From a virus (Duplodnaviria; Heunggongvirae; Uroviricota; Caudoviricetes), in the IMG/VR virus record IMGVR_UViG_3300021387_000463, positions 107,001 to 171,000 of that record: DNA of 64,000 bases. One strand, written 5' to 3'. The first letter of the stretch is position 1, and each line of letters begins with the position of its first letter. A model generated the notes under the pieces. It was given only the letters and a program-made list of their open reading frames with translations, had not been told where the DNA came from and did not search any database. The position numbers and the translations under genes were made by a program. Shown here piece after piece: positions 2,412-40,344 of the stretch.

Positions 2412-2494
2412 GGGAACATACAGCAAGTAATTATTTATAAAATTAGTTACTAGATTTGGGTTTTAGATAAACGATTTTTTATTGTTCCCTTTTC
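2412..2494. repeat. TACAGCAA element copy: 5' GGGAACA-TACAGCAA ... 3' TGTTCCC + T-run
   Basis: gggaacatacagcaa at 2412-2426 and complementary tgttccc at 2483-2489 followed by tttt; ends 3 nt before tRNA-Gln. Confidence 0.45.
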
Positions 2495-2496
2495 AT

Positions 2497-2570
2497 TGGG
2501 CTTTAGTGGAATTGGCTAACACGTCAGATTCTGGCTCTGAAGATTGGGGGTTCGAGTCCCTCAAGCCCAA
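2497..2570 (+). tRNA. tRNA-Gln(CTG)
   Basis: U1-A72 acceptor tgggctt/aagccca; anticodon stem tcaga/tctga with loop ttctggc; T arm ggggg/ttcgagt/ccctc. Confidence 0.55.
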
Positions 2571-2756
2571 CGTTGAGCTTATTAGTCCCTGAAGAAATTC
2601 AAACTATGTAAGCCTTGTCGGAGAGCAAGTCTTTTTGAGACGTACATCTTGATGCCGATTGGTCGGAGGTAAATGAGAGATTGTATTATGTCTTTAACGA
2701 CTCTAAAGATTACTTAATCAGAAACTACTCTCCTTGTTTTAGATAACATATAGAAT

Positions 2757-3194
2757 ATGAGTATAGAGAAAAGTTTCGATGGTGCTTTCAAACGAATGAG
2801 AGACCGCAATTGGGAGAAGATATATGTGTTGGTAGATATACACGACACCATATTAAAAGCTTGCTACAATGACGAGGAAACGCATCAGTGGTTTCCATAT
2901 GCTAAAGAGGCTTTGGACATCATGAGTCATGCGCAGCAAATATCGCTCATTCTCTGGACATCAACCTATGATGACATCATCGCTGACTATCTCAAGCACT
3001 TTAAGGAGAATGGCATCACATTCGACATGGTGAACGTAAACCATGAGACAAAGAACACAGATTTGTCTTGCTTCGATAAAAAGACCTATTTCAATGTGGG
3101 TATCGATGACAAGTTTGGTTTTGATGCTGAAACAGATTGGGAAATATTGTACAACTACCTCGTTGAAGGTATAAGACTTGGCAAATTCAAGTAA
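2757..3194 (+). CDS. hypothetical protein (145 aa), weak HAD-like N-terminus
   Basis: ORF; VLVDIHDTIL only loosely resembles HAD motif I. Confidence 0.45.
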   Translation: MSIEKSFDGAFKRMRDRNWEKIYVLVDIHDTILKACYNDEETHQWFPYAKEALDIMSHAQQISLILWTSTYDDIIADYLKHFKENGITFDMVNVNHETKNTDLSCFDKKTYFNVGIDDKFGFDAETDWEILYNYLVEGIRLGKFK

Positions 3195-3405
3195 AATGAG
3201 TGACAGAGACTTAAAGATACTAAACGACAGAAAGAGCACTCTAGTGAACAAGATTAATTGGCATAAAGATAAGCTTGCAGAACTTGAGGGAGAGTTAAAA
3301 GGAATAAATAGTTTTATAAACAGTTCAAAATAAATAAAAGATATGTATTATTACGATTATTATTATAGTGGATAAAGTTTGATGGAGCAGTCTCGCACTT
3401 TCCAT

Positions 3406-3494
3406 CAATAAGCTTCGGAAGGCAGCAACGATGGTGGTGTTGTGCTAGACTGTAAATCTGGTCCCACAGGGTAAACATTGGGGGTTCGAATCCC
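3406..3494 (+). tRNA. tRNA-Tyr(GTA)-like, type II
   Basis: acceptor cggaagg/ccttccg; anticodon stem ctaga/tctgg with loop ctgtaaa; T arm ggggg/ttcgaat/ccctc; long variable region. Confidence 0.45.
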
Positions 3495-3601
3495 TCCCTT
3501 CCGACAAATGCTAACACAAGTCTTTAGGCAACCTCTCTAAGAGCAGCATAAGACTATAGAGGTAATAATGCAAGAATTCTAGAGTGTTGGTATTTTTAAA
3601 T

Positions 3602-3694
3602 CGGAAGGTAACGGCAGTGGTCTGTAAAACCACCCTGCTTAACAAATTGTCGTAGTGGACTCGCAGTAAGGGGGTTCAAATCCCTCCCTTCCGA
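3602..3694 (+). tRNA. aberrant tRNA-like paralog of 3406 (D region too short, extra 36-nt segment)
   Basis: same acceptor cggaagg/ccttccg and T arm; gtggtctgtaaaaccac hairpin sits too close to the acceptor to be the anticodon arm. Confidence 0.3.
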
Positions 3695-3703
3695 CATACA
3701 GAC

Positions 3704-3784
3704 TGTGGAGTTCCAGAGTGGTCAAATGGGGGGGTCTGTAAAACCTCTGCTTCGGCTTCGTAGGTTCAAATCCTACCTCCACAA
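3704..3784 (+). tRNA. tRNA-Tyr(GTA)-like, 13-nt variable region
   Basis: acceptor tgtggag/ctccaca; anticodon stem ggggt/acctc with loop ctgtaaa at the expected position; T arm gtagg/ttcaaat/cctac. Confidence 0.45.
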
Positions 3785-3794
3785 CAAAATAAAT

Positions 3795-3875
3795 CTAGGT
3801 GTAACTGGTAATAGGTTTCCAACTGCATTTGGAATGCAGGCGTAATGCATGGGGGTTCGAGTCCCTTCGCCTAGA
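3795..3875 (+). tRNA. tRNA-Pro(TGG)-like
   Basis: acceptor ctaggtg/cgcctag (one G-U); anticodon stem ctgca/tgcag with loop tttggaa; T arm ggggg/ttcgagt/ccctt. Confidence 0.45.
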
Positions 3876-3909
3876 CAAAAAGGAATCTTGCAGCAATAGG
3901 TAAGACATC

Positions 3910-3979
3910 AGACATGTAGCTCAATGGTTAGAGCCTTGGATTTTACCAAGAGATTAGGGTTCGACTCCCTACGTATCTT
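3910..3979 (+). tRNA. tRNA-like with 6-nt anticodon loop auuuua (UUU or UUA)
   Basis: canonical D arm ta-gctc-aatggtta-gagc and T arm taggg/ttcgact/cccta; anticodon stem cttgg/ccaag encloses only 6 nt; acceptor has 1 mismatch. Confidence 0.35.
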
Positions 3980-4007
3980 TGTTTAAAAGGATTCCGATTT
4001 TTAACAT

Positions 4008-4081
4008 GGTGGTTGTAGCTCAGTTGGTAGAGTACCAGATTGTGGCTCTGAGGGTCATGGGTTCGAATCCCATCTTCCACC
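4008..4081 (+). tRNA. tRNA-His(GTG)
   Basis: loop ttgtggc; extra 5' G(-1) opposite C73, typical of tRNA-His; T arm atggg/ttcgaat/cccat. Confidence 0.55.
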
Positions 4082-4096
4082 CAAAAAATTGTTACG

Positions 4097-4279
4097 ATGG
4101 TAAAAGTATTAAATAAAAACATAGCTAGATGCTCAAGATGCAATTGCCTTTTGGAATATAATGCATCTGACATTGAAGAGAAAGAATGCGGATATAGTGT
4201 TCAATCATACGCTGGAGAAACATATATTGGAAAGTTTATTACTTGTCCAAACTGTGGAAATAAATTTGAAGTGTCTTGA
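4097..4279 (+). CDS. small zinc-ribbon protein (60 aa)
   Basis: CSRCNC...CPNCGN paired CxxC motifs. Confidence 0.45.
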   Translation: MVKVLNKNIARCSRCNCLLEYNASDIEEKECGYSVQSYAGETYIGKFITCPNCGNKFEVS

Positions 4280-4298
4280 ACACATTTTTCTAAAAAAA

Positions 4299-4330
4299 TT
4301 TGGAATTTAAGATTTTTTTATATATCTTTG
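4299..4330 (+). promoter_or_regulatory. Bacteroidetes-type promoter feeding the tRNA/TACAGCAA unit at 4361
   Basis: aaTTTGgaatttaagatttttttataTATCTTTGca. Confidence 0.5.
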
Positions 4331-4360
4331 CATAGTATTTCATAGGCAACAAATACACAA

Positions 4361-4487
4361 GGAAACATACAGCAACTATTAAAGGTATAGCATTAAACTG
4401 ATAATTTAAGGGTCGTTGGTTCGAGTCCAACTCACGCTACCAAGGTTGGCGTGATAGCTAAGATGGATAGAATGTTTCCGATTTTTT
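4361..4487 (+). ncRNA. permuted/split tRNA-Ile(GAT) unit inside a TACAGCAA element
   Basis: 5' ggaaacatacagcaa (4361-4375); D-stem 3' strand tagc; anticodon arm ttaaa/ctgataa/tttaa; variable gggtc; T arm gttgg/ttcgagt/ccaac; acceptor 3' tcacgct-a-CCA (4431-4441); 5-nt linker aggtt; acceptor 5' ggcgtga (4447-4453) + ta + D-stem 5' gcta; 3' aatgtttcc gattttttt (4468-4487). No matching 5' acceptor upstream in normal order. Confidence 0.4.
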
Positions 4488-4564
4488 TAGGGGAGTGGGC
4501 CAGAGGTCAACGCCGCTTGCTTTGGGAGCAAGTTTTATCGCAGGTTCGAATCCTGTCTCCCCTA
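4488..4564 (+). tRNA. tRNA-Pro(TGG)
   Basis: acceptor aggggag/ctcccct; anticodon stem cttgc/gcaag with loop tttggga; T arm gcagg/ttcgaat/cctgt. Confidence 0.5.
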
Positions 4565-4616
4565 CAACTTGATGTAAATCAATAAATTACATAAACGGTG
4601 TAAATTGTTTTGAATT

Positions 4617-5600
4617 TTGGCTGATTTTTATGCGAGTTCGACTCTATATTATATAGAAATATGTAATTATATGGATGAATTAACAAAAAAAATCAGAGAA
4701 TTAAAATTTGAAAAGGGGTATTCAAATAGTCAAATTTCAAAAGAATTGGGAGTAACAATAGAAAAAGCAAAAAGAGTTACTTGTAAAAGATATGATGAAA
4801 CATTAAAAAAGAAGGAAATTAGAAAAAATGCTGAAAAAGAATTTGTTGATTTAGTAAAACGATATTTACCATTGTCTAATTCTTTAAATCATTTATGTAA
4901 CAATTTAGGGTTGAGAGGTGTAGACGGATATTATAAGAAACTAAAACGAATAATATCAGAATATAATCTATCTACTGAACATTTTGGTACTATTAAAATT
5001 AGCCGATTTGGTGTAGCTAGAAACAAAGTAACCGCAATGACGGACGAAGAATTTTTTGTAAAAGGTTCTAAACGTAGCGGAGACTCAATAATTAAAAGAT
5101 TAATTGAAGGTGAATATAAAGAATATAAATGTGAAAATTGTGGTATAAGTGAGTGGGATGGAAAACCATTGAGGCTGCAAGTCCACCATATAAACGGAGA
5201 CCATAACGACAATAGAGTTGAGAACATTCAGTTATTATGCCCAAATTGTCATGCACAAACTGACACATATGCAAGGCATAACACTACTAAGAATGGTGGG
5301 TTTGTTGTTAAAAACATTGAAGAGCTAAAAGATAGTATTAATTATGTCAAGCCAAAATATTGCAAAAAATGTGGCAAAGAAATAACTAATGGCAGTAATG
5401 AATATTGTTCTCATGAATGTGCTCAAAAAGCCTCTAGAAGATTTGAAGTATCATCAGCACAGTTGATAGAAGACTTCAAAGAACTTAAATCATTCACAGC
5501 AGTAGGTAGAAAATATAATGTTAGCGATAATGCAATAAGAAGAAGAGTTAAAAAACTTGGAGTATATGAAGAAGTAAGACAATTTATCACTCCAAGGTAA
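4617..5600 (+). CDS. HNH homing endonuclease with zinc ribbon and C-terminal HTH
   Basis: HHINGDHNDNRVENIQLLCPNCH HNH motif; CKKCGKEITNGSNEYCSHEC zinc ribbon; C-terminal YNVSDNAIRRRVKKLGV. Confidence 0.7.
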   Translation: MADFYASSTLYYIEICNYMDELTKKIRELKFEKGYSNSQISKELGVTIEKAKRVTCKRYDETLKKKEIRKNAEKEFVDLVKRYLPLSNSLNHLCNNLGLRGVDGYYKKLKRIISEYNLSTEHFGTIKISRFGVARNKVTAMTDEEFFVKGSKRSGDSIIKRLIEGEYKEYKCENCGISEWDGKPLRLQVHHINGDHNDNRVENIQLLCPNCHAQTDTYARHNTTKNGGFVVKNIEELKDSINYVKPKYCKKCGKEITNGSNEYCSHECAQKASRRFEVSSAQLIEDFKELKSFTAVGRKYNVSDNAIRRRVKKLGVYEEVRQFITPR

Positions 5601-5614
5601 AGACATTTGATGTT

Positions 5615-5950: not shown

Positions 5951-5975
5951 ACAAGTTTTATTGTTATCATATCTT

Positions 5976-6069
5976 GGGAACTTACAGCAAGGTTAAGAGG
6001 ATAATTTTTTATTTGTTCAAAATGAAAATAGATAGTTCGAGCCTATCAAATGATAGTTCCCTTTTTTTT
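5976..6069. repeat. TACAGCAA element copy with internal T-arm-like hairpin
   Basis: gggaacttacagcaa (5976-5990); hairpin gatag/ttcgagc/ctatc (6031-6047); complementary agttccc (6055-6061) + ttttttttt. Confidence 0.4.
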
Positions 6070-6115
6070 ACTGACTAATATTTCTAAAAAAAATAATATA
6101 AGTAAGAAAAAAGTT

Positions 6116-7132: not shown

Positions 7133-7332
7133 TGATTATGGTAGGAGAATAACGACAAACGCTTTGGCGGTGTTAATGCATGAAAACCGCAAGTTTGTCA
7201 GTCATCAAAAACTGTCTACATTCTCCTTTTCTTCAGATGACTAGATAAACGGTTGCTGCGAAAGGTAAACAGCTCACGGACTAATACCAAACCAGATTTG
7301 CTAATGGTAAATCACTAAGTTAGTTCACTTAT

Positions 7333-7403: not shown

Positions 7404-7476
7404 CTTTTGAAAATAATTTGTCTTTCGAGACACATTTTTTGCTCTTTTGAAATATTTATATGTAAAGAGCTATATT

Positions 7477-8169
7477 ATGGAAATTGATATAAAAAGTGTT
7501 TTAGATAAATCAAAAACAATAAGTGATATTGCTAGAATAATTTTTGGAAAGCCTAACTATACAAACAGAGAAAAATGCAAAAAAATTCTTTCTGAGTATG
7601 GAATTGATTGGGAAAAATGGTTAGAAGAAAAAAAGATTAAGCCTAAGAAGTTTTGTCTTAATTGTGGGAAGGAAATAATTAATGGCGATTCTAGAAAAAA
7701 ATTTTGCAATTCATCTTGTGCAGCATCTTATAACAATTTAGGTATCGCTAGAAACTATAAAGGTGGTAAGAGAAAGGATGAAAAATCTTATTGCTTAAAC
7801 TGTGGTAAAGAAATAAAACGAGGTAAATTTTGTAATAATACTTGTCGTGCAGAATATAATGCAAAACAATATATTGAACGTTGGAAAAGAGGTGAAGAAA
7901 GTGGGTTAAAGGGTAAGTATGGCATTGCTTCTGCTGTTAGGCATTATATTTTTGAGAAAAACGAAAACAAATGTGAAATTTGTGGAAAAAGTTATGTAAA
8001 TCCGTATACTGGGTTGTCTGTTCTTCAAATTCATCATAAGGATGGCGATTGTACAAATAATAGAGAGGAAAACTTACAGTTATTATGTCCAACACATCAT
8101 GCAATGACCGAGAATTTTGGCAGTAGAAATCCAAATGCCACAAGAAAGGATAATAGAATGAGATATTAA
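7477..8169 (+). CDS. HNH homing endonuclease with two zinc ribbons
   Basis: HHKDGDCTNNREENLQLLCPTHH; CLNCGKEIINGDSRKKFCNSSC and CLNCGKEIKRGKFCNNTC; start moved to the internal Met after the promoter-like region. Confidence 0.65.
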   Translation: MEIDIKSVLDKSKTISDIARIIFGKPNYTNREKCKKILSEYGIDWEKWLEEKKIKPKKFCLNCGKEIINGDSRKKFCNSSCAASYNNLGIARNYKGGKRKDEKSYCLNCGKEIKRGKFCNNTCRAEYNAKQYIERWKRGEESGLKGKYGIASAVRHYIFEKNENKCEICGKSYVNPYTGLSVLQIHHKDGDCTNNREENLQLLCPTHHAMTENFGSRNPNATRKDNRMRY

Positions 8170-8406: not shown

Positions 8407-8604
8407 ATGGAAAAATGTATGCGTTGTGGGCATGAACTAATTATCGGAGGTAATTTCATGCTCAGTGACTTCAACGGAGAGGATTTAGCTGAAGATGATG
8501 ACGCAATGGTAACAAATGCTCATTGTCCACACTGCGGAGCTAGTTATGAGATATATGATACTCCTGAATCTGAAAAGAAGAATTATCCATATTGGAGTAA
8601 CTAG
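8407..8604 (+). CDS. small zinc-ribbon protein (65 aa)
   Basis: MEKCMRCGHE...CPHCGAS; the N-terminal part of ORF 8284-8604 overlaps a tRNA-like gene and was trimmed. Confidence 0.45.
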   Translation: MEKCMRCGHELIIGGNFMLSDFNGEDLAEDDDAMVTNAHCPHCGASYEIYDTPESEKKNYPYWSN

Positions 8605-8722: not shown

Positions 8723-8869
8723 GGAAACATCCAGCAAATACAGAGTTGTTATTAGAAATTGCTACCGAAACGGTATGTGGGTTCGACTCCCACACGTCTA
8801 TCTTAACGAGGGCGTTGGTGAAATTGGTATACACGGCTATTGTAGAACAAAATGTTTCCGAATTTTTTT
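8723..8869. repeat. TACAGCAA element copy with internal T-arm hairpin
   Basis: ggaaacatccagcaa (8723-8737); internal gtggg/ttcgact/cccac; complementary atgtttcc (8852-8859) + gaatttttttat. Confidence 0.4.
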
Positions 8870-8924: not shown

Positions 8925-9377
8925 ATGAATAGCAAATTAGAGTATATAAAGGAAAATTTGGATATTATCAATGAAATGATTAAAGATAATAGACCTAAGT
9001 TTGAGATAGCTAGGATTTTGGGCGTTAAGTATGATACATTAAATAAGAATCTTAAGCTATTAGGAATTGAGTATGCAGGTAATCCAAACAGAAAAGGAAT
9101 GAAACATGAGGATGGTAAAATTTCTGCATATGAATACTTAGGTACTAACAAATTTATAACTGCTCCTAAACTAAGAAATAAATTAATAGAAGAGGGTATC
9201 AAAGGGGAAATATGTGAAAGGTGTGGAAATAGTACCTGGATGGGTGAGAAAATACCATTAGAGTTACATCATATAAATGGAAATCACTATGATAATAGAT
9301 TAGAGAATTTACAAATTCTATGTCCGAATTGTCATATGCAAGTACATGGTTATTCTAACACTAAGCACAAAGAATAG
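8925..9377 (+). CDS. HNH homing endonuclease (150 aa)
   Basis: CERCGNS...HHINGNHYDNRLENLQILCPNCH. Confidence 0.7.
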   Translation: MNSKLEYIKENLDIINEMIKDNRPKFEIARILGVKYDTLNKNLKLLGIEYAGNPNRKGMKHEDGKISAYEYLGTNKFITAPKLRNKLIEEGIKGEICERCGNSTWMGEKIPLELHHINGNHYDNRLENLQILCPNCHMQVHGYSNTKHKE

Positions 9378-10274: not shown

Positions 10275-10430
10275 GGAACGTACAGCAACATTTACTTATT
10301 TAAAAGATTTTGTATTAGATTCGTAAATGAGGATAAGAGAAGCACTAAATCATAATTGCGAGGCACTTATCCATGCTCTTCGGAGCAAATGTCTAGTCAT
10401 GACAGTAAATTGACCGTTCCTTTTTCTTTT
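10275..10430. repeat. TACAGCAA element copy (no tRNA body)
   Basis: ggaacgtacagcaa (10275-10288) ... complementary cgttcc (10415-10420) + tttttctttt; interior has the UUCG hairpin gctc-ttcg-gagc. Confidence 0.35.
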
Positions 10431-10750
10431 GTCGCAATTGACACAAAACATAGTGGAAGCGTACAGCATGTACTTAATCATCTTGTTACTAACGATTGCT
10501 GATTTTAGAGGTTTCCAATTAAACACTTGCAAGGGCAACCAGTAAGCGTACCTCTCTAATCTTTAATCACACTAGGCAAAGGGTTGAGGTAACGTATTAC
10601 TCTTGTGAAGATAGTAGCAAAGGCATGTGAGTGTAGGATAGGCGAGAGACGTTGAAGCATCTTCGCAAGGAGTTGTGGAGTCAACCTTGAAATATCGCCC
10701 TCATCGTAATAGCTGAATCTCCAACTAGAATAAACCTACGCTTCCTTCAT

Positions 10751-15951: not shown

Positions 15952-16088
15952 GGGTACACACAGCAAGTATAAATTTACACTTCAAACAGACTGTCAATTT
16001 GTGTAACGTGGGTTCGATTCCCACCCCCTCCGCAAAGAGAATTAAATAAACTGGAGGGGTTGAAATGTTGGTTTTATGTACCCTTTTA
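15952..16088 (+). ncRNA. permuted/split tRNA-Asp(GTC) unit inside a TACAGCAA element
   Basis: 5' gggtacacacagcaa (15952-15966); D-stem 3' strand ttca; anticodon arm acaga/ctgtcaa/tttgt; T arm gtggg/ttcgatt/cccac; acceptor 3' cccctcc-g (16025-16032); 20-nt linker; acceptor 5' ggagggg (16053-16059) + D-stem 5' tgaa; complementary tgtaccc (16076-16082) + ttttat. Confidence 0.4.
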
Positions 16089-16161
16089 TGGCTCGATAGT
16101 TCAGTTGGTAAAATACTCGATTTGTAATCCTGAGTCCTCAGTTCGAATCTGGGTCGAGCCT
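16089..16161 (+). tRNA. tRNA-like, anticodon arm irregular (loop contains uuuguaa; TGT or GTA)
   Basis: perfect acceptor ggctcga/tcgagcc; T arm ctcag/ttcgaat/ctggg; D arm ta-gttc-agttggtaa. Confidence 0.4.
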
Positions 16162-16166: not shown

Positions 16167-16293
16167 GGTGACGTAGCTCAGTCGGTAGAGCACTAAAAAA
16201 TCAACGTGTTGCCTCGTGTGCGCAACCCACAGCAAATATTATGATGAATGGCTGTTAACCAAGGGGTCTGTGGTTCGAGTCCACACGTCACCG
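16167..16293 (+). tRNA. oversized tRNA-like gene (127 nt) with ~75-nt insertion after the D arm
   Basis: perfect acceptor ggtgacg/cgtcacc; canonical D arm ta-gctc-agtcggta-gagc and T arm tgtgg/ttcgagt/ccaca; insertion carries gcgcaac-CCACAGCAA and gctgttaacc. Confidence 0.35.
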
Positions 16294-18006: not shown

Positions 18007-18669
18007 ATGATAGCTGCTTTTGATACATATTATTATAATGGATATTCTTATACTGTAGCTGGAGTATTTAAGTCATGGAATGATAAAGATATTGCTTACT
18101 ATGCTACTAGTAAGAGGATGTGTATTGACGCAGAATACAAACCAGGAGAACTATATAAGCGTGAGCTTCCATGCATTATGCAATGTTTGGCATTATTACC
18201 ACTTAAGGATATTACGCTTATTATGGTAGATGGTTTTGTATGGCTTTCTGAGGATGGTAAAACCTTAACGAAGGGTTTGGGTGCTCACCTTCAAGATGCA
18301 ATCTTTAAGAAATATGGTGAGAAAATTACTGTTGTTGGTGTCGCAAAGAACAGATACCATGTAAATATACCAGATTGCTATGATATAGAGCGTGGTTTGG
18401 AATCAGCAAAGCCATTGTTTGTAACATGTAGTGAACACTGTCTTGCAGAACATTATTCAAACATGGTCAAGATTATGTATGGTGATTATAGAATACCAAA
18501 AATCTTGAAAGATGTAGACACTAGGACAAGAGAACTTGGGCATGAACATTCTGAGGAGATAGAAGCAGAACTTGAAAAAGAATATAACTCCAAACCCATA
18601 GATATATCAATTGGTGATTTTGATGAATTTATGGCAACTTGTGAAAAAAATGGTTTTAAATATAGATAG
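18007..18669 (+). CDS. nfi: endonuclease V (deoxyinosine 3' endonuclease; also cuts inosine-containing RNA)
   Basis: RELP, MVDGFVW, GLGAHL and VVGVAKNR align with E. coli Nfi blocks REYP, FVDGHGI, GVASHFG and IGVAKKR. Confidence 0.6.
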   Translation: MIAAFDTYYYNGYSYTVAGVFKSWNDKDIAYYATSKRMCIDAEYKPGELYKRELPCIMQCLALLPLKDITLIMVDGFVWLSEDGKTLTKGLGAHLQDAIFKKYGEKITVVGVAKNRYHVNIPDCYDIERGLESAKPLFVTCSEHCLAEHYSNMVKIMYGDYRIPKILKDVDTRTRELGHEHSEEIEAELEKEYNSKPIDISIGDFDEFMATCEKNGFKYR

Positions 18670-20589: not shown

Positions 20590-21003
20590 TAATGCACAGC
20601 TCAGTGACTTATACAAAATTAAGGGTAATATATTGAATGACATTTTGAATCTTAATGAGCAACTTAGCAAAAAGAAATTAGCCCTTTCAATAGTCAATAG
20701 CAGAATTAAGAAATTAGAAGAGAAATGAAAAATTGTTAAAAGATTTGGAAATCTCAAAAATTATATATATCTTTGCATTGTTAAACAATTTAATATCAAA
20801 TATTATGTTAGAATTTATTATCGGTTTAGTTGGTGGTTGGTTCGCCTACAAGTATAAGGATAAGGTGGGGCTGTAACCAAAAGGTATAGTGGGACAAGAG
20901 AACTGTAATAGTGGAATCTGAAACATAGCGAACAACGTGCCATAAGAAGCCTCAGGTCTTGTTGAAAGGGCGAATCACACTTTAAAAACAAACGCCCCCA
21001 AAT

Positions 21004-21087
21004 GCTTGAAGACATATGAATAGGTAACATCTACGAGACCCACAAGGGTTGACGGAATAGTAGGTTCAAATCCTACCGCAAGCACCA
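21004..21087 (+). pseudogene. tRNA 3' fragment ending in encoded CCA (T arm gtagg/ttcaaat/cctac, acceptor 3' cgcaagc-a-cca); 5' half degenerate
   Basis: no complementary acceptor 5' strand (gcttgaa pairs only 5/7); CCA is directly followed by the TACAGCAA 5' motif. Confidence 0.3.
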
Positions 21088-21088: not shown

Positions 21089-21230
21089 GGAAACAGACAG
21101 CAATGGTTATTTTTTTAATAAGCCTTGTAAGCAGTGGGTCATGGGTTCGAATCCCATCGAGGGGTGTAAGCTCCTTGTAGCTCAGTCTGGTCTAGAGCAA
21201 CTTAAAATGTTAAAAACGTTTCCGATTTTT
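21089..21230 (+). ncRNA. permuted/split tRNA-like unit inside a TACAGCAA element
   Basis: 5' ggaaacagacagcaa; T arm atggg/ttcgaat/cccat; acceptor 3' cgagggg-t; 5-nt linker gtaag; acceptor 5' ctccttg (all 7 pair, 2 G-U) + complete D arm ta-gctc-agtctggtcta-gagc; 3' acgtttcc gattttt. Confidence 0.35.
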
Positions 21231-21248: not shown

Positions 21249-21809
21249 ATGGCAGTAGGTGTAATTATCGCAAGGCTTCAGCCAATACACAAGGGACACC
21301 TTGAGTTGGTCAGACAAGCTCTTAATGAGAATGACGAGGTTCTTATCCTTGTTGGTTCAGCAGACAAACTGAATAAGCGTAACCCAATTCCTATCGCAAT
21401 GCGTTTGGATTTGGCAAAGAGAGCAATAACTGAGGAGTTTGGTGAGGGCGCTGGCAAAGTTAAAGTAATGCCACTCAATGACCTTACAGATGAATCAGAT
21501 AATTCTCATGATTGGGGATTTTATCTCTACAGCCATATAGTTGGAATCACTAAGTCACTTGAATTTACCATTTATTATTCAGATGGATTTGAGATTATCA
21601 TGCAGTGGTTTCCTCCATTCATTACAAGAGACTTCGTTTCTTTTAAATTGAATGCTAGAGGTGCAATCCACAACAACTTGTCTGCAACAAAGGTAAGACA
21701 GATGATTCTCAAGGGTGATGAAAATGCTCTCGCAGAGGCAGTACCAACTTGTGTTGCTGAAAATGCGGTAATATTGAAACATTTCATTGAAGCATTTCAA
21801 GATGTATGA
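21249..21809 (+). CDS. nadM: nicotinamide/nicotinate mononucleotide adenylyltransferase (NadM-type NMNAT)
   Basis: ARLQPIHKGHLELV = (H/T)xGH nucleotidyltransferase motif in the archaeal/phage NMNAT context GRFQPxHKGH. Confidence 0.6.
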   Translation: MAVGVIIARLQPIHKGHLELVRQALNENDEVLILVGSADKLNKRNPIPIAMRLDLAKRAITEEFGEGAGKVKVMPLNDLTDESDNSHDWGFYLYSHIVGITKSLEFTIYYSDGFEIIMQWFPPFITRDFVSFKLNARGAIHNNLSATKVRQMILKGDENALAEAVPTCVAENAVILKHFIEAFQDV

Positions 21810-22237: not shown

Positions 22238-22780
22238 CAAAACATAATGGGCTTGAATGGTATAGAACGTTATGCGTCTGGTAAAGGACAAGCAGTGGGC
22301 ATACACTTCAAATAGCAAAAAAAACAAACGCAGAGAACGTAGATTCTCCTGCTTATGAGTACGCTATAGCTGCGTAAGCATGAGCCGAGAGGCTAGGCTC
22401 TTAGGAACAGAACATCCTAGCAAACTTTTTTTAGCTTCGTGCTAGATGGTGGAATCGGTGACTCTAGTCATCCCCCAAGTTTTCCTTGTTTTCTCAAAAT
22501 AAGGTGGCGGATTTTCGACAGCAATGTCAACTTTCCAATTTAAGCTTGTATAATCCTTTATGGGATGGTAATTGTGACGAGGGTTCGAATCCCTCCAGGT
22601 CCACTTAATAATCAGTCAGGGTTGGATGATGAAGTAAACTTTTACAGTAAAGTTATGCTATATTAGGATAAAAGTCATGTATTAATCTGTATAACATACA
22701 TGGAAGGGAATCTTTCATAAGTACATTGAAGAGGTTCGTGTAGCTGATTATTTTATAAAAGAAAAAAAGTTCTTTGAAAA

Positions 22781-23088: not shown

Positions 23089-23332
23089 TGAAAAAAAGTT
23101 CCTAAAAAATTTGGAATTCTCGAAAATTATCTATATCTTTGCAAAGTGAAAAGAAATAAATGAGGAAACTAACAGCAAACATTTAAACATCAAACTGTAA
23201 ATTTGAACAACGTTTAAAAAGTTTCCGTTTTATTATATAACATAGCGGCAGAGTGAAACAGATTACACGCTAGGCTCATAACCTAGAAACACCAAGTGCG
23301 ACTCTTGCGTGCCGCCACTTGATTTGGAAGAT

Positions 23333-23617: not shown

Positions 23618-24440
23618 AACATTGTAGGCTTCGGCTGAAAATGAGGAGTTTGGCTAGCTTTCGTAGCCAAATGAAGGATAATCCAGTGATGGGACTAAAT
23701 GTGATGTGAAATTGACCATAGTAGCATTGCAGATATGTAGGGGCAACCCTATGTATTTCACTGAAAAGCATATGGCACGGTCTACGCTGGGGGTAACACC
23801 CTAGGCGTAGGTTCTCAAGGGCTGAATGTCTTTGAGTGAGTGGTAACACAATAGATTGCCATATGGAACTCGATGCAATAGTCACCAGTTGGCGTGTTGG
23901 GTTCAGTTATATGCTAGTCTCAAGTTGAAATGCTTGAGAACCGTAAGGCTGATAGTATGTAATAGCAATTGGACTTGTGGTGAGTCTTTGTAGGGAGGCG
24001 ATTTCGTGGGTCGTGCTCAAAAGGCACGAATGCGATGGGTCGCACCTCGTCTTCCAATGGTCGTGCAAATTTCCAAAATTTGATTTGAAATATGGTTCAA
24101 ATGTTTATTTAGCAAAAGTGTGCGACACTAGGCAGCTAAAATGCACTTATCCTTCTGCAATATGAAGGGGTTGGGGACTCGCAAGGAATCCAACAAGAGA
24201 GTAAAAGTACTCGTCTGAGTCAACAGGAGGCATCCTGTGAATCCGCAAGAGCTTGGCGAAGAACTGAAATCTATGATGCTGTACCGAAAGGTTTAAACTA
24301 GTAAGTGTTTGGTTGTTTTCGCAAAACCTCCGTGCATGGTGTCTACGGCTATCGTAAGGTAGCGTGTGAACAGCAACGTCCAACCGTTGTGAAATGACAT
24401 CTACAACAAGACAATGTTCTCAGTCTTTTGTTTTTACATA

Positions 24441-24564
24441 GGGAGTTAGCTTAATGGTCAGAGTAATTTTGTTGCGATTTAAGCTACAACACAGTCTCGA
24501 CTTCGGAACAGATTGATGCTTTAACTGATAATGAAAAAATGGTGGTTCGAGTCCATCACTCCCT
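24441..24564 (+). tRNA. oversized tRNA-like gene (124 nt)
   Basis: acceptor gggagtt/cactccc (6/7); T arm ggtgg/ttcgagt/ccatc; body contains ctgataa (Ile-type loop) and a UUCG hairpin. Confidence 0.3.
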
Positions 24565-24725
24565 GCGTACCGTTTTGGGGCACTTTTTGAGTAAACAAAG
24601 TGTTAAACTTTGGCACTAGATAGCTACTAGGTGTTATGGGTTGGAAAGTTTGAATCCCTTGGGGGTTTGTAGAATGTAATGTTTTTAACCAACTGTTTTT
24701 GATACGGCTTAATATTTAATTATAT

Positions 24726-25616: not shown

Positions 25617-25677
25617 AGGAAGCTTACAGCAATGTAAAAAGACCGCAACTCTTGGCCTAAGACTAGCTTCCGATTTT
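25617..25677. repeat. TACAGCAA element, minimal copy (no tRNA body)
   Basis: ggaagcttacagcaa ... complementary agcttcc + gattttt. Confidence 0.4.
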
Positions 25678-27141: not shown

Positions 27142-27226
27142 GGGCATATGGCTGAGTGGTCGATAGCGGCAGTCTCTAAAACTGTTATGGCGAAAGTCAT
27201 CGTGGGTTCGAATCCTACTATGCTCA
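27142..27226 (+). tRNA. amber suppressor tRNA, anticodon CTA, type II (Ser/Leu/Tyr-like body)
   Basis: acceptor gggcata/tatgctc all paired; D arm tg-gctg-agtggtcgata-gcgg; anticodon stem gcagt/actgt with loop ctctaaa at the expected position; long variable arm; T arm gtggg/ttcgaat/cctac. Confidence 0.5.
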
Positions 27227-27454
27227 CTACGGCTGGTGTATCCATAGTGGATGCTGAAATAAGTGAGACAGCGCAAGCCATGTAAGAAGTGGCAGATGAA
27301 GCAGCAATGCGGTGCGAGGATTAGTCCCTTGCCCTAGTTCCTTGATGGTTAAGAGGATACCTTCATGGTTGATACAGGTAAACCTAATTTACTATTATGA
27401 TAGAATATCTCAAAAAATTAGAAGCAACGATGTGCAAGCATAAATGGGAGGATT

Positions 27455-33069: not shown

Positions 33070-33208
33070 GTGCGGTTCGTCTAGTGGTTTAGGACAACGT
33101 TTAAAAAAGTTTTTTAACGTTTCCGTTAGGAAATAGACAGCAGATGTATTATTGAAAAATTATGCATTCCAAGCCGTAAACAGAGGTTCGAATCCTTTAC
33201 CGCACTCT
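33070..33208 (+). tRNA. oversized tRNA-like gene (139 nt), paralog of 32641 with ~85-nt insertion
   Basis: perfect acceptor gtgcggt/accgcac; same D arm tc-gtc-tagtggtttag-gac; insertion has the palindrome aacgtttaaaaaagttttttaacgtt and hairpin tttcc-gtta-ggaaa followed by TAGACAGCAG. Confidence 0.3.
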
Positions 33209-35520: not shown

Positions 35521-35593
35521 GCCCCATTAGTTCAGATGGATAGAGCATTTGTTTCCTAAACAAACTGTCACTGGTTCGAGCCCAGTATGGGGT
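35521..35593 (+). tRNA. tRNA-Arg(CCT)
   Basis: anticodon stem tttgt/acaaa with loop ttcctaa; ta-gttc-agatggata-gagc; acceptor gccccat/atggggt. Confidence 0.6.
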
Positions 35594-35610
35594 ACATAAA
35601 CTTAAGAAAT

Positions 35611-35796: not shown

Positions 35797-35821
35797 TACT
35801 TTTCAAAATCTATTTATATTT

Positions 35822-36754: not shown

Positions 36755-38058
36755 AGAAAATTGTTTTATTTATGCTTGCAATGATTGCTTTTGGTTCTTG
36801 TTCAAAGCATGATTTTGCAGAGTATTCTTACGCTGAACAGCAGAAGGATAAGTTCGAGTCTGCATTTGTTGAGGAGTTCGGAACACCAGCTTCTGACCAA
36901 GATTGGGGTTTTGACAACGTAACATTGTTTGACTACACGCAAGCAAGTACACGTGGCCATGATGTGAATCGTAATCAGTGGCAAGGAAAATACATTATTC
37001 CTGCAAATGTAACTGCTGAAGAAGAGCAAGCTGTTCTTGACAAACTTGCAGAAGGTTCTGGTGACAGAGATTCTAAGATGATTGAGGATTGGCCTAATTT
37101 CTTTGTTTACCATGTTCATAAGGGAACAGATGTTTATTACGACCATGCTGGACAAAGCATTGGCGTTGCATCAGACCATATGAATCACTTACAAGCAGTG
37201 TTCCCAGATGGTACAATGGACCATATCAACGACTTCAACAGTGGTCAGCAGAATGCTAATTGGTGGACGATTGAGGGTGCAACTCTTATGTTGAATTCGT
37301 CAACATCAGATTTCGCTTACCACAATTCAACCGACAGCAAATATCATAACAACTATGTTGTGATTGATGGTGCTACTATTGGTTATCCTGGTTTCTATTA
37401 CATTTGTTTCGATTTTTTGGCAAATGGTGACATTGAGCAGCCTAGCAACAAGAATATGGGTGTTGATAGAAACTACAACTACACTGATTGGATTATTCGT
37501 ATTAGTCCAGCTGTTTTTGATATGACTGGTGCTGTTCGTATTATTGCTGAAGACTTGGGTGCTGACCAAGGAAGTGACTTTGACTACAATGATGTTGTAT
37601 TCGATGTAAAGCTTGCTAATGATTGGGATGCATCTTGGGGTTCAAATGGAGATAACAGACTTAAGGCTTATATAACACTACGTGCAGCAGGTGGTACTCT
37701 TCCTCTTACAGTGGCTGGGGTTGAGGTACACAGCAAGTTTGGCGTTGCCGCAAACCATATGCACAATACAAATGCTTATGGCGAAGGAATCAATTATAAC
37801 AGTGGCGTTAGTTTCGTAGCAGACCTCGGTCCTGCTGAATGGAACTTACAAGGAAGTGACATTGCTAAGAATCTTATTCCTATTGTCGTAACATACAAGA
37901 ATGGAGAGACAGCAACTCTTAGCTGCGAGACTGGTAAAGCTCCAGAAAAGATTTGTGTTAAGCCTGATTTCAAATGGCAAGAGGAATACATCAACATTAG
38001 AAAGAAGTATCCTTTGTTCTCTGCTTGGGTTCTCGACAAAACTGTTAATTGGCAGTAA
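36751..38058 (+). CDS. lipoprotein, paralog A (435 aa)
   Basis: signal peptide + lipobox FGSC; shared motifs DFDYNDVVFDV and KICVKPDFKWQ with 38111-39355. Confidence 0.6.
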   Translation: MKKIVLFMLAMIAFGSCSKHDFAEYSYAEQQKDKFESAFVEEFGTPASDQDWGFDNVTLFDYTQASTRGHDVNRNQWQGKYIIPANVTAEEEQAVLDKLAEGSGDRDSKMIEDWPNFFVYHVHKGTDVYYDHAGQSIGVASDHMNHLQAVFPDGTMDHINDFNSGQQNANWWTIEGATLMLNSSTSDFAYHNSTDSKYHNNYVVIDGATIGYPGFYYICFDFLANGDIEQPSNKNMGVDRNYNYTDWIIRISPAVFDMTGAVRIIAEDLGADQGSDFDYNDVVFDVKLANDWDASWGSNGDNRLKAYITLRAAGGTLPLTVAGVEVHSKFGVAANHMHNTNAYGEGINYNSGVSFVADLGPAEWNLQGSDIAKNLIPIVVTYKNGETATLSCETGKAPEKICVKPDFKWQEEYINIRKKYPLFSAWVLDKTVNWQ

Positions 38059-38110
38059 ACTATCAACAGCCACACTGTACCCCCACAAGGGGACAATGTG
38101 GCTTTAATAT

Positions 38111-39355
38111 TTGTTTAATATGCATAGAATCTTATATTATATCATATTATTGGCTGTATTTATCTCTTGTGAAAAGCAAATGACTATATCACAAGAGTCT
38201 CAAAACATATCTAGTTATAACGAAGACTTTAGGAATAAAGTTGGAAATCCTAGTGGTTCACAAGAATGGGGAGATTGGTGTCTTCACATTCCGTCATTCA
38301 CTAGGTCTGTTAATAGCGATACTACAACATGGGATAGATACAGAGAAGTCACATATCCATCTGATGAAGATATAAACGATATTATATCTACGTTTAATGA
38401 ATACTATGATGGTATTAATATGGTAACATTACCAGAAGGGGATTATTGGGTTAAAACAATATATAAGGATACTTTACACCTTTATATATCTCCAGATTGG
38501 CATGGTGCTTGGTTTTATGCATATGAGAAAATGCCTACTATAAGCGTATATAGTCAATCTGAGAAAAGATATGAACCAATAGAAGGTATTGATTCATTAG
38601 TTCTCATTGAAAACCTTGATGAATATGATAGTATAATGCCTCAATTCGCATATTTCAATGAGTTATACAGTGAAAATCATTTTGAACAAAGAACTATTGA
38701 ATACAATGGTATATACTATGTTGGATTTGATTTTTACGCTGATGGCTTTATAGAGGGTGGTGGAGACGATTACTTTATCATGAATGTTGTAGAAAGAGAC
38801 TACATATATCGTGATATGATAATCATGTTAATACCAGCATATAAATTAGGACAAGAAGAGGTGTATGATGAAAAAAGGGTAATGTGCGAAGATTTGTCAA
38901 ACAATCATGATTTTGATTTCAATGACCTTGTATATGATGTTGCTATCGTCAAATTAGATGACGTTCTAAAGACTAAAATCACAGTGCAAGCAGTTGGTAC
39001 AAATCAATCGATAATAATAGCCACTAAGGAGGCACATGAATTATTCGGTACACAAGAGGCAATTATTAACACTAACCCAAGTATGCCTAGAAGAGAACCA
39101 CAGTCTTTCTATATTGATGAAGTTATAGAGGATATAAGGGATATTGAAGTCTCTACATTTTACAATAACAAAATCTACTTTCTTGGAAATGAAAAGGGAG
39201 AACCAACACAGAGAATATGTGTAGATACTAACACAAAATGGGGAAATGAAGGATATGTTTTCTGGATAACTTATCCTAGATTTAAGGAATGGGTCAGCGA
39301 CCCTTCAGTTACTGATTGGGAAAAATATTGCAATACCGAGCTTGTTTTTAAATGA
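38111..39355 (+). CDS. lipoprotein, paralog B (414 aa)
   Basis: signal peptide + FISC; DFDFNDLVYDV and RICVDTNTKWG. Confidence 0.6.
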   Translation: MFNMHRILYYIILLAVFISCEKQMTISQESQNISSYNEDFRNKVGNPSGSQEWGDWCLHIPSFTRSVNSDTTTWDRYREVTYPSDEDINDIISTFNEYYDGINMVTLPEGDYWVKTIYKDTLHLYISPDWHGAWFYAYEKMPTISVYSQSEKRYEPIEGIDSLVLIENLDEYDSIMPQFAYFNELYSENHFEQRTIEYNGIYYVGFDFYADGFIEGGGDDYFIMNVVERDYIYRDMIIMLIPAYKLGQEEVYDEKRVMCEDLSNNHDFDFNDLVYDVAIVKLDDVLKTKITVQAVGTNQSIIIATKEAHELFGTQEAIINTNPSMPRREPQSFYIDEVIEDIRDIEVSTFYNNKIYFLGNEKGEPTQRICVDTNTKWGNEGYVFWITYPRFKEWVSDPSVTDWEKYCNTELVFK

Positions 39356-39413
39356 AAGCAACATTATATTTATTATATACATGGGTAAATAATAAGTATA
39401 AAGGTAAGACAAA

Positions 39414-40010
39414 ATGATAATCGGTTCAACTAACTCCTTAACATATAGCCGCCCAAGCAGTTGGTGGCACAATATGCTATGGTGGCGTACTAGACACCAA
39501 GAAGTAGACTATGAGCTACAATATAGGTTCTATGGTGTAAGATTATTCGAATTCAAATTATACGTAAACAAGAATAAACGAATAGTAGTTAGAAGTGAGA
39601 ATGCGATATACTCTATATTCTCATTCTATGAGATATTGGATTTCTTCAATAAGATGGGTGATGTAACTCTTTTAATTACTCTCAATGAAACACTTGATGA
39701 ATACATGTTGGATTATAATCATGCGATTGAGAAGAAGTTTATAGAATCTTGTCGTATTATGGAAACCATCTACAAAGATATAATGTTTTGTGGAGGCTAT
39801 AGAGAATATGATGAAAAGCAGTTATATGAATTTGAATGGGAAAAGAAGAATGGCATGCCTAACATACTAGCTCCAGATGACTGGTCAGTAGCATATAGAT
39901 TTGTTCAGAAATGGTGTCCATTCCTACTCAAGAAGCTCAATAGGTACTACATTAAGAAATATGAGTATTTCAAAGGATTCTTAATGCTCAGTTACGTAAA
40001 CAGACGTTAG
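39414..40010 (+). CDS. hypothetical protein (198 aa)
   Basis: ORF. Confidence 0.5.
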   Translation: MIIGSTNSLTYSRPSSWWHNMLWWRTRHQEVDYELQYRFYGVRLFEFKLYVNKNKRIVVRSENAIYSIFSFYEILDFFNKMGDVTLLITLNETLDEYMLDYNHAIEKKFIESCRIMETIYKDIMFCGGYREYDEKQLYEFEWEKKNGMPNILAPDDWSVAYRFVQKWCPFLLKKLNRYYIKKYEYFKGFLMLSYVNRR

Positions 40011-40021
40011 GAATATTTATA

Positions 40022-40141
40022 TTAGGGGATAGTGTAATGGTAACACGCTGTAATTTCCGTTACCTTTGAGGTAACATTACAGCAATCATTAGGAAAATAG
40101 CTTTTGGTGCCAGTATTGGAGGTTCGAATCCTTCTCCCCTA
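40022..40141 (+). tRNA. oversized tRNA-Gln(TTG)-like gene (120 nt) with insertions flanking the anticodon arm
   Basis: perfect acceptor tagggga/tccccta; D arm ta-gtg-taatggtaa-cac; anticodon arm gttac/ctttgag/gtaac; preceded by gtaatttccg and followed by ATTACAGCAA; T arm ggagg/ttcgaat/ccttc. Confidence 0.35.
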
Positions 40142-40148
40142 GCAAACA

Positions 40149-40234
40149 TGGCGAGGTGCCAGAGTGGACAATTGGGGCACTCTCATAAGGTGTTAGTTTC
40201 GGCTACCGTTGGTTCGAATCCAACCCTCGCTACC
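40149..40234 (+). tRNA. type-II tRNA with anticodon CAT and encoded CCA
   Basis: acceptor ggcgagg/cctcgct; D arm tg-cca-gagtggacaat-tgg; anticodon stem gcact/ggtgt with loop ctcataa; variable arm; T arm gttgg/ttcgaat/ccaac; a-cca. Confidence 0.4.
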
Positions 40235-40235
40235 A

Positions 40236-40344
40236 AGGGAACTTACAGCAAGTATAACTCGTGAAGGAATGGTCTACTTGAAAGTCTAAAAAACTTTTGC
40301 GCAGTTTGCGCTTGTGGGTTCGAATCCCACCGAAAATCAGTTCC
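40236..40344. repeat. TACAGCAA element copy abutting the CCA end; internal T-arm hairpin
   Basis: gggaacttacagcaa (40236-40250); gtggg/ttcgaat/cccac; complementary agttccc (40338-40344). Confidence 0.35.

Follow-up and report, generated by a model that had tools for sequence, protein, structure and literature searches.

We identified a recurring RNA module in a 64,000-nucleotide (nt) stretch of a caudoviricete virus genome (IMG/VR record IMGVR_UViG_3300021387_000463, positions 107,001 to 171,000). This whole stretch is referred to as the window, and positions without a contig name are given in its own coordinates. The window contains 43 transfer RNA (tRNA) calls by ARAGORN and a transfer-messenger RNA (tmRNA), all on the plus strand, and the same DNA is also present on an 83-kb metagenomic scaffold. 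Eleven solid copies of the module and one weak copy lie on this strand as well. The module marks the point at which unconventional tRNA genes are broken, and it does so in three topologies: as leader and trailer of a tRNA body in normal order, around a circularly permuted tRNA, or as a capped insert within a tRNA.

The module consists of a helix of 6–8 base pairs (bp) opening with GG, which we call helix X, followed by N-A-CAGCAA, an interior of 40–135 nt, the exact complement of the helix 5' strand, and then G or T, mostly leading into a T-run. The 5' strand of helix X conforms to GG-R-W-W-C-N, and the box N-A-C-A-G-C-A-(A/G) directly after it is single-stranded. An A-rich stretch precedes the 3' strand, and G or U and then U-rich sequence comes after it. 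A sequence-only reading of the window had each copy end in G and a T-run. The T-run is present in 10 of 11 copies but absent at 40345, and the base 3' of the helix can be T as well as G, though it is never A.

The combination of GG and box is strongly enriched in the window. GGN7CAGCAA occurs 12 times, always on the plus strand, compared with 1.24 +/- 1.0 times in shuffled sequence, while ACAGCAA occurs 26 times (25 on the plus strand; 10.8 expected) and TACAGCAA eight times (3.07 expected). Pairing was tested with a relaxed 5' motif alone as the query, the reverse complement of each match's own 6-nt stem being sought within 260 nt. It was found downstream of 10 of the 14 matches and upstream of none, where shuffled stems give an expectation of 1.1; the eleventh solid copy, 10275, has a 6-bp stem that lies outside the regular expression used. 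Eight types of stem pair exactly (GGGAACA, GGAATC, GGAAACAT, GGGAACT, GGAACG, GGGTACA, GGAAACT and GGAAGCT), which bears out the covarying RNA helix of the sequence-only reading. Because eight different, perfectly paired stems occur in one genome, the copies do not derive from one recent duplication with identical stems, a possibility that was checked and is excluded. An RNA-level helix with covariation and an invariant single-stranded box are established, and we are confident that the structural description of the module and its tRNA topologies holds.

All ten copies listed by the sequence-only reading, which had expected at least that number, are present at or within 1–6 nt of the positions it gave. 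Two more, 3882-3995 (core TGCAGCAA) and 23164-23226, were added by a script that looks for a GG stem, 0–4 nt and CAGCA, and then for the reverse complement within 220 nt. The copy at 10455..10516 (+), already listed as weak, is degenerate: GGAAGC and GTTTCC pair only with the help of one G.U, the core reads ACAGCAT, and no T-run follows.

Many interiors have an unusual order of tRNA parts. A spacer is followed by an anticodon arm, a variable region, a T arm and a 7-nt strand with a discriminator base (sometimes CCA), and a linker of 5–21 nt then leads to a perfect complement of the 7-nt strand, U8-A9, a canonical D arm (e.g. GCTCAGTTGGTAGAGC) and an A-rich spacer. This order, read from the alignment of orthologous copies, is that of a circularly permuted tRNA with its acceptor stem closed by the linker and its ends held by helix X. 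A 3' portion located upstream of the 5' portion and joined to it by a linker is found in copies 4361, 15952 and 21089 and in their relatives, so that, as had been noted, interiors in the window include whole permuted tRNAs.

Copy 4361..4479 (+; helix GGAAACAT/ATGTTTCC) carries a tRNA-Ile(GAT) that is circularly permuted: anticodon arm and T arm come first, then the acceptor 3' strand TCACGCT plus ACCA, a 5-nt spacer, the acceptor 5' strand GGCGTGA and the D region; a partial tRNA match lies inside it at 4378-4431. The cargo of copy 15952..16083 (+; helix GGGTACA/TGTACCC, core CACAGCAA, tail TTTTA) is a circularly permuted tRNA-Asp(GTC) whose acceptor stem, CCCCTCC...GGAGGGG, is closed by a 21-nt linker, and tRNA-Thr follows at 16090. 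Copy 21089..21223 (+; helix GGAAAC/GTTTCC, core GACAGCAA) starts 1 nt past the CACCA of an upstream tRNA-like RNA and encloses a permuted tRNA-Thr(TGT)-like body in which the D arm, TAGCTCAGTCTGGTCTAGAGC, is canonical and the acceptor linker is 6 nt long. In copy 8723..8859 (+; helix GGAAACAT/ATGTTTCC, core variant CCAGCAA) the permuted tRNA-like body is degenerate, with a T arm, a short closed acceptor-like hairpin and a D-like arm. The likely syntenic counterpart of this copy, judged from neighbouring alignment blocks, is L093(-)9736 (names of this kind give the contig, strand and position of copies outside the window).

Rotation in silico and trimming of the module yielded full-length ARAGORN tRNAs from 4361 (Ile(GAT)), 15952 (Asp(GTC)) and 21089 (Thr(TGT)), and rotated relatives gave tRNAs for Asn, His, Gly, Cys and Gln; ARAGORN is permissive, and the exact junction of these rotated tRNAs is ambiguous by a few nucleotides. 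Helix X, both the anticodon and the T arm, and the closed acceptor stem all emerged from an unguided RNAalifold prediction on six permuted elements, and 10 of 26 pairs had compensatory changes. The Ile element has a near-identical core of anticodon arm and T arm in the window and in L093, yet its acceptor stem is fully swapped and still complementary (TCACGCT/GGCGTGA in the window, CCTCCCC/GGGGAGG in L093). The permuted genes of the Ile and Asp/Asn groups are broken in the D loop, those of the Gly and Thr groups on the 5' side of the anticodon stem (28/29 or 29/30). Several pairs of orthologous elements differ in the anticodon and are nearly identical elsewhere: 15952 and L058(-)1475 (GTC/GTT), 4361 and L093(-)6526 (GAT/AAT), L093(-)8823 and L094(-)8759 (TCC/GCT-like), and L032(-)3477 and L063(+)6602 (TTT/TGT).

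The leader/trailer form comprises the GGAATC group, in which the two ends of the module flank a tRNA body of normal order. The window representative, 3882..3995 (+; helix GGAATC/GATTCC, core TGCAGCAA, tail GATTTTT), encloses a degenerate body that ARAGORN calls as tRNA-??? at 3910-3979, and within its relative L094(-)5783 lies a nearly intact tRNA-Ile that has an acceptor stem of its own.

In the capped form the two strands of the helix are joined by a short loop and the box comes last. The sequence-only reading had placed local versions of the module in oversized tRNAs, and three of these are real capped inserts. One (16208..16235, +; GTTGC-loop-GCAAC + CC + ACAGCAA) lies between positions 28 and 29 of tRNA-Asn(GTT) 16167-16293. 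The second (33120..33143, +; TTTCC-GTTA-GGAAA + TAG + ACAGCAG) lies between positions 29 and 30 of tRNA-Gly(TCC) 33070-33205. The third (40059..40085, +; GTTACC-TTTGA-GGTAAC + AT + TACAGCAA) lies between positions 28 and 29 of tRNA-Gln(TTG) 40023-40141, the sole Gln-UUG tRNA in the window. The hairpin of this last insert had been taken for the anticodon arm; the anticodon loop, TTTTGGT, lies downstream of it. A fourth site, 22515-22527, is within the tmRNA, lacks a GG..AAC helix and is probably a chance match. Deletion of 46–64 nt restores an ordinary tRNA-Asn, tRNA-Gly and tRNA-Gln from the three window genes. Capped inserts are also found in tRNAs of L032, L063, L089 and L127, where some interrupt the anticodon loop.

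Circular permutation converts the open form into the capped one and vice versa. The strand adjoining ACAGCAA is always the GG..AAC strand, and capped loops such as TGTAT, TGTATTG and GTTA resemble the first nucleotides of the tails of open copies. The 29/30 junction of tRNA-Gly(UCC) is found capped in the window (33070) and permuted in L024(-)2790; in L093(-)8823 the junction could be either 28/29 or 29/30.

The remaining open copies hold less of a tRNA or nothing of one. The T arm alone is retained in 5976..6061 (+; helix GGGAACT/AGTTCCC, T arm GATAG TTCGAGC CTATC, tail T8), which comes after the stop codon of an open reading frame (ORF), and in 40237..40345 (+; helix GGGAACT/AGTTCCC, core TACAGCAA, no T-run), which begins 1 nt past the CCA of tRNA-Met 40150-40235. 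Copy 2412..2489 (+; helix GGGAACA/TGTTCCC, core TACAGCAA, tail TTTTC), orthologous to L093(-)2083, has a 7-bp hairpin and an anticodon-arm-like hairpin (loop TTTGGGT) with no T arm, and precedes tRNA-Gln at 2497. Copy 23164..23226 (+; helix GGAAACT/AGTTTCC, core AACAGCAA) was read by eye as a rod with an anticodon-arm-like tip, TCAAA-CTGTAAA-TTTGA, which a constrained fold did not return. The shortest open copy (54 nt) is 25618..25671 (+; helix GGAAGCT/AGCTTCC, core TACAGCAA, tail GATTTTT), and 10275..10420 (+; 6-bp helix GGAACG/CGTTCC, core TACAGCAA, tail TTTTTCTTTT) has a structured cargo that is not tRNA-like. Short copies in other lineages frequently have terminal hairpins with 7-nt loops such as CTTTTAA and CTGTAAA. 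The sole constant across copies is the module itself.

Further structured RNAs were observed in the array. An oversized tRNA-Ile(GAT) at 24440-24565 (+) has a 52–65 nt insert ahead of its anticodon arm that lacks ACAGCAA and contains a GTTG...CAAC hairpin with ACACAGTC after it; a diverged copy of the module and an insert of another type are both possible. ARAGORN missed a Tyr(GTA)-like RNA with a D-like arm in the position of the variable arm (3596-3700, +), a 115-nt oversized tRNA-like RNA conserved in L093 and L094 (8268-8382, +), and the 85-nt tRNA-like RNA whose terminal CACCA precedes copy 21089 (21003-21087, +), a layout also seen in L010. An RNA at 7144-7226 (+), directly after an ORF and orthologous to L093(-)8506-8592, has a terminal helix (GGAGAAT/ATTCTCC) and a T-run, with the core AACGACAA in place of ACAGCAA. 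The sequence CAGCAA is also found at positions 8–13 of a tRNA-Tyr (3416-3505, +), spanning C8 and A9 after the acceptor stem and the GCAA of the D stem, so the module could descend from the acceptor-stem and D region of a tRNA.

The module is widespread beyond the window. A covariance model built from the termini (R1) cannot bridge the long interiors, recovered only the 54-nt copy 25618 (21.6 bits) and was abandoned in favour of pattern scans; a scan of IMG/VR with one 15-mer returned mostly chance matches. Approximately 20 IMG/VR contigs carry complete elements, often several each, in dense tRNA arrays. Among non-seed copies in 119 fetched loci and the window, the downstream complement is present in 46 of 145 motif matches, compared with 8–10 in controls. 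The resulting consensus is (R)(W)|GG-R-W-W-C-N|N-A-C-A-G-C-A-A/G ... A-rich|N-G-W-W-Y-C-C|G/U and then U-rich sequence. In 59 distinct termini, helix X is paired in 96.9% of cells and four of its seven pairs vary on both sides. Since pairs 1–6 were required by the filter, only the enrichment tests and pair 7 are independent evidence; pair 7 is AU in 24 termini, UA in 13, GC in 8, UG in 1, and unpaired or other in 13. Flanking nucleotides fall into correlated subtypes (alignment A1), GT before a copy going with TT after it and AA before with mostly G or TG after; these nucleotides cannot pair with each other.

The copies belong to a family whose members occur in at least 13 contig groups, with no nucleotide similarity between the groups. 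The group related to the window comprises L024, L048, L058, L079, L086, L093 and L094, of which L093 is syntenic with the window at 76–86% identity. The window has no megablast match among GenBank phages. At gathering thresholds, Rfam models run on the window and nine related loci match tRNA and tmRNA but not the module, and a GOLLD-like RNA is found below threshold; at E values up to 10, two sub-regions show no ribozyme family and weak YrlA/TLS noise. A scan for the capped pattern in 185,579 bacterial and archaeal genomes gave 49 matches, none of them in a tRNA, where we estimate that chance alone would give some 43. In viral contigs the scan identified a single genuine tRNA insert, that in L127. 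Neither the module nor permuted tRNA genes of phages were found described in full-text literature searches.

Several genes in the window are relevant to RNA processing. They encode an ATP-dependent RNA ligase domain protein (60973-61908, +; PF09414), a CCA-adding enzyme (57187-58581, +), and, inside the tRNA array, an Endonuclease V (EndoV) family protein (18007-18669, +; PF04493, 29.2 bits against a cut-off of 23.4), homologs of which with 60% identity are present in the arrays of L058 and L079. EndoV is reported to leave 3'-OH and 5'-phosphate ends, which an ATP-dependent RNA ligase can join. The ligase and CCA-adding enzyme belong to an RNA-repair and nicotinamide adenine dinucleotide (NAD) salvage cluster (57187-63840 and 21249-21809, +), along with an isochorismatase-family (nicotinamidase-like) protein and nicotinate phosphoribosyltransferase (NAPRTase); a nicotinamide mononucleotide (NMN) adenylyltransferase lies within the array, and a NADAR-domain protein just past the window end in L181. 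Four free-standing ORFs in the array (1525-2400, 4617-5600, 7447-8169 and 8925-9377, +), several adjoining module copies, were read as HNH endonucleases from HNH-like motifs; a domain search did not confirm this, and the one scanned matched a DUF559 model. A small haloacid dehalogenase (HAD)-like ORF (2757-3194) is conserved in the arrays of L093, L094 and L048. The array also contains promoter-like TAnnTTTG boxes of the Bacteroidota type and a phage-encoded tmRNA (22249-22604, +; tag AENVDSPAYEYAIAA). A suppressor tRNA with anticodon CUA (27142-27227, +) suggests TAG recoding. A GOLLD-like large RNA (23993-24426, +) aligns to RF02032 over its full length at 73.6 bits (E 1.6e-18; gathering score 150) and lies 14 nt upstream of the oversized tRNA-Ile.

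In architecture the permuted genes resemble those of Cyanidioschyzon merolae, some green algae and Thermofilum pendens. In both cases the 3' part comes first, the acceptor stem is joined by a short linker, the ends of the transcript pair, and the same junction element also serves as an intron in non-permuted tRNAs. However, the junction there is a bulge-helix-bulge, which is cut by the archaeal and eukaryal splicing endonuclease; we know of no splicing endonuclease of this type in bacteria. The module instead has an uninterrupted 7-bp helix, the ACAGCAA box and variable spacers, and is carried by a bacterial virus. Rather than two 3-nt bulges 4 bp apart, helix X is continuous over 6–8 bp, and both logos and individual sequences indicate that ACAGCAA and the A-rich flanking strands form no 4-bp central helix. 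Two-piece (permuted) tmRNA is a bacterial example of a permuted tRNA-like gene, its product being two base-paired pieces that are not ligated. The module differs from it in having no tag reading frame, no G3.U70 alanine identity, and cargo of many identities. The module constitutes a new RNA motif. It defines a type of permuted and interrupted tRNA gene in bacterial viruses that is itself new and independent of the bulge-helix-bulge.

Two other kinds of RNA are known from tRNA regions of related phages. The unexplained, 'enigmatic' introns in tRNAs of the Lak (Prevotella) megaphages (Devoto et al. 2019, PMC6784885), the one reported instance of introns in phage tRNAs, are likewise inserts of 50–130 nt that are not group I introns, in Bacteroidota phages, without an Rfam match and in some cases with tRNA-like parts. 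However, they are located right after the anticodon, start with UAC(A/G)G and a hairpin, contain a nested T-arm domain, and lack the GGRWWC helix and ACAGCAA; the box does not occur in the part of Table S6 that was examined (PMC6784885), and the Lak study did not describe permuted genes (PMC6784885). We observed inserts of this second type in L008(-)9802 and 10350, L089(-)2758, 6189, 7163 and 10424, and L099(+)489. They are 75–130 nt long, lie right after the anticodon and start with UAC(A/G)G and a hairpin; three of the seven end in GAAC before exon AA, and two interrupt apparent suppressor tRNAs (UUA, UCA). A T arm, or even a complete tRNA, is nested within some of them, which suggests excision by RNase P and RNase Z. 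Theta ribozymes (PMC10879173) are also small structured RNAs in the tRNA regions of gut Bacteroidota phages, often accompanied by an RNA ligase or CCA enzyme, and start with G directly after a tRNA 3' end. The module has neither their double pseudoknot (P1, P2, P3, P1.1, P4) nor their catalytic C region, and no Rfam match, and the partner strand of its helix is terminal.

The sequence-only reading had proposed a tRNA-associated guide for processing or ligation, a small-RNA family, or a mobile module resembling a miniature inverted-repeat transposable element (MITE). The copies do form a family, although the module is a junction element of tRNA genes with unconventional topology and not a free-standing RNA beside tRNAs. 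A mobile element of the MITE kind is not what we find, as the terminal repeats differ within one genome, flank logos contain no target-site duplication, and orthologs are syntenic in a related phage. A role in processing or ligation is the leading reading, plausible but unproven. At about even confidence, we favour an interpretation in which the element serves phage tRNA genes as a junction module at the RNA level, acting both as a clamp and as a recognition signal for processing. The copies were also said to abut tRNAs. Copies 21089 and 40237 do start 1 nt past an encoded CCA, but 2412, 4361 and 15952 end 6–9 nt, a T-run, before the next tRNA. For 5 of the 11 open copies a tRNA lies 6–17 nt downstream, so that they are co-transcribed with it and must be processed.

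Each processing step in this proposal is inferred. Precedents are YrlA of Mycobacterium smegmatis, a permuted-order tRNA mimic that RNase P cleaves and to which CCA is added (PMC4201824), and the unexplained megaphage introns (PMC6784885). Helix X would clamp the two ends of an RNA, or two exon ends, so that the tRNA body can fold, and would provide termini resistant to exonucleases. RNase P and RNase Z, acting on the 7-bp acceptor stems, would free the tRNA or open the acceptor linker. A putative factor (a nuclease, a ligase or a ribonucleoprotein) would recognise ACAGCAA and excise or seal the junction. Maturation would then be completed by the phage RNA ligase and CCA-adding enzyme, giving either a rejoined or a two-piece tRNA. 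Some copies have lost their tRNA cargo and kept the module alone. That such products are used in translation is possible, if somewhat unlikely. We also think it rather unlikely that large Bacteroidota phages run a pathway of tRNA splicing and rejoining of this non-bulge-helix-bulge kind, in which helix X and ACAGCAA would form the recognition element, host RNase P and RNase Z and a phage nuclease would cut, and the phage ligase would join exons or circularise the permuted precursor.

A number of observations weigh against this proposal. The leader/trailer form needs no splicing. Copies 2412, 23164 and 25618 (54–78 nt, with an AT-rich interior and at most an anticodon-arm-like hairpin) leave no possibility of a tRNA, and neither the non-tRNA structure in 10275 nor L093(-)9736, where a loop of 3–4 nt closes the acceptor, can yield one; acceptors closed by 3–6 nt loops occur elsewhere as well. 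Spacers between module and tRNA body range from approximately 0 to 18 nt and the insertion site varies, which argues against a splicing enzyme that works as a ruler. Anticodons drift between orthologs (GAT to AAT, GTC to GTT, ATTCCAA to ACGCTAT), and most module-bearing tRNAs duplicate ordinary tRNAs of the same array. We identified no endonuclease for cutting the junction and no partner complementary to ACAGCAA anywhere in the window.

Several of these points would be expected if the elements were stable small RNAs that mimic tRNAs and are never matured, as in the YrlA group of Y RNAs (RF02553), an explanation that we regard as rather unlikely but as a strong alternative. Helix X would then be a terminal stem, ACAGCAA a handle for protein binding comparable to the 5'-strand Ro60/Rsr site of Y RNAs, and the elbow of T and D arms the effector, so that the RNAs could be decoys or tethers for tRNA-binding enzymes or anticodon nucleases. 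YrlA RNAs likewise have a terminal stem formed by both ends, a short conserved motif on the 5' side, and the order 5' stem, T arm, closed acceptor, D arm, 3' stem. Some are phage-encoded, and the Mycobacterium smegmatis member, a tRNA mimic in permuted order, is cleaved by RNase P and receives CCA (PMC4201824). The short acceptor loops, the drifting anticodons beside T and D arms that are the best-conserved parts of the cargo, and the duplication of ordinary tRNAs all fit such a role, as do the short copies of several lineages with anticodon-arm-like tips (CTTTTAA, CTGTAAA) and no other tRNA part. The module also gives weak, sub-threshold matches to YrlA (21.0 and 15.7 bits against a threshold of 69; E 0.26 and 8.8). 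However, the Rsr motif GNCGAAN0-1G (PMC4201824) is absent, with ACAGCAA in its place. Of the 30 window ORFs searched with Pfam models (a subset of the ORFs in 64 kb of the genome) none gave a TROVE match, while YrlA genes lie on the same strand as a Ro60/TROVE gene and less than about 4 kb from it. YrlA is also limited to one or two copies; here there are a dozen. Most copies keep the anticodon arm, which YrlA lacks, and the same module occurs inside normal tRNAs with free acceptor ends and brackets a near-intact normal tRNA.

Alternatively, redundant tRNA genes could have been invaded by a selfish intron-like element of which the module is the conserved end, or the module could be a scar of recombination in them, with permuted and interrupted tRNAs as pseudogenes arising by tandem duplication and deletion between module-bearing copies. 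The many insertion points, the variety of tRNA identities, the continuum from intact to decayed cargo, and the gain and loss of copies between related phages are in line with this, and the putative HNH endonuclease ORFs are interspersed in the array. Linkers are sized like the spacers between tRNAs, and the stretch from one hairpin loop to the next in two tandem capped tRNAs corresponds exactly to an open copy. Decay of this kind does not fit the tRNA cores, which are more conserved than their flanks, or the replaced acceptor stems, which are still fully complementary. Terminal helices differ between copies, flank logos reveal no target duplication, neither a reverse transcriptase nor a transposase was found among the ORFs scanned, and syntenic orthologs argue for long residence. 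We consider this origin improbable.

The T-run after 10 of 11 open copies, several of which lie between an ORF stop and a promoter-like TAnnTTTG, raises the question of whether open copies are intrinsic terminators or 3'-end stabilisers that act through a long-range hairpin, the box being incidental. The hairpin, however, encloses 40–135 nt, where an intrinsic terminator has a short G+C-rich hairpin at a transcript end, and the T-run is absent in many relatives. The five copies with a tRNA 6–17 nt after them leave no room for a promoter, capped copies sit inside tRNAs, and the invariant ACAGCA would be left unexplained, which together make a terminator very improbable.

A self-cleaving ribozyme of the theta type resembling that of hepatitis delta virus (HDV), or of the hatchet type, which would cut at its own 5' end and so generate the 3' end of the upstream tRNA, has almost no probability in our estimation. 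Two copies begin 1 nt past an encoded CCA, the 7-bp helix opens with G like P1 of HDV-like ribozymes, and theta ribozymes adjoin tRNAs in Bacteroidota phages (PMC10879173), but the partner strand is at the 3' end of the element and not in its middle, nothing downstream is conserved that could form P4, J4/2 or P2, the variable spacers are incompatible with a fixed catalytic core, and no ribozyme family matches even at E values up to 10. Equally implausible is a structure at the DNA level, whether terminal inverted repeats of a MITE or, as in integron attC, a recombination site folded from a single strand: variable inverted repeats with conserved complementarity do flank 50–150 bp and all copies have a single orientation, but all are on the transcribed strand of the tRNA array with U-runs after them, helix ends match the boundaries of tRNA structure, G.U pairs are required in a few candidate copies, there is no match to the attC core sites RYYYAAC/GTTRRRY, and no recombinase was found among the ORFs scanned. 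A test for an excess of G.U pairs in helix X, which would separate pairing in RNA from pairing in DNA, gave no statistical excess and few plausible cases.

Other candidates were tried and rejected. A group I intron would need more than approximately 200 nt, compared with inserts of 46–64 nt, and there was no Intron_gpI match. Hatchet and hairpin ribozymes have the wrong topology or the wrong conserved nucleotides, and a tmRNA-like tag starting at GCA would be read in inconsistent frames. A retron msr/msd would come with a reverse transcriptase, which was not found among the ORFs scanned, and a K-turn or box C/D with tandem G.A pairs, which are absent. The stems vary, which excludes a mimic of a clustered regularly interspaced short palindromic repeat (CRISPR), and the 5' strand must be in the RNA, which excludes a promoter.

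Standard tRNA finders miss the module-bearing genes, and phage tRNA repertoires and the recoding inferred from them are therefore incomplete. The motif is a candidate for a new Rfam family. As a conserved and widespread sequence, the module provides a handle on the expression of permuted and interrupted tRNA genes in bacteria. It may help to explain the tRNA introns of megaphages, and it may show the purpose of the RNA ligases and CCA-adding enzymes that are enriched in such phages. Permuted and protein-spliced tRNA genes have hitherto been regarded as archaeal and eukaryotic and as dependent on the bulge-helix-bulge endonuclease. If the splicing pathway proposed here is true, it would be the first protein-dependent tRNA splicing, and these would be the first functional permuted tRNA genes, in the bacterial world.

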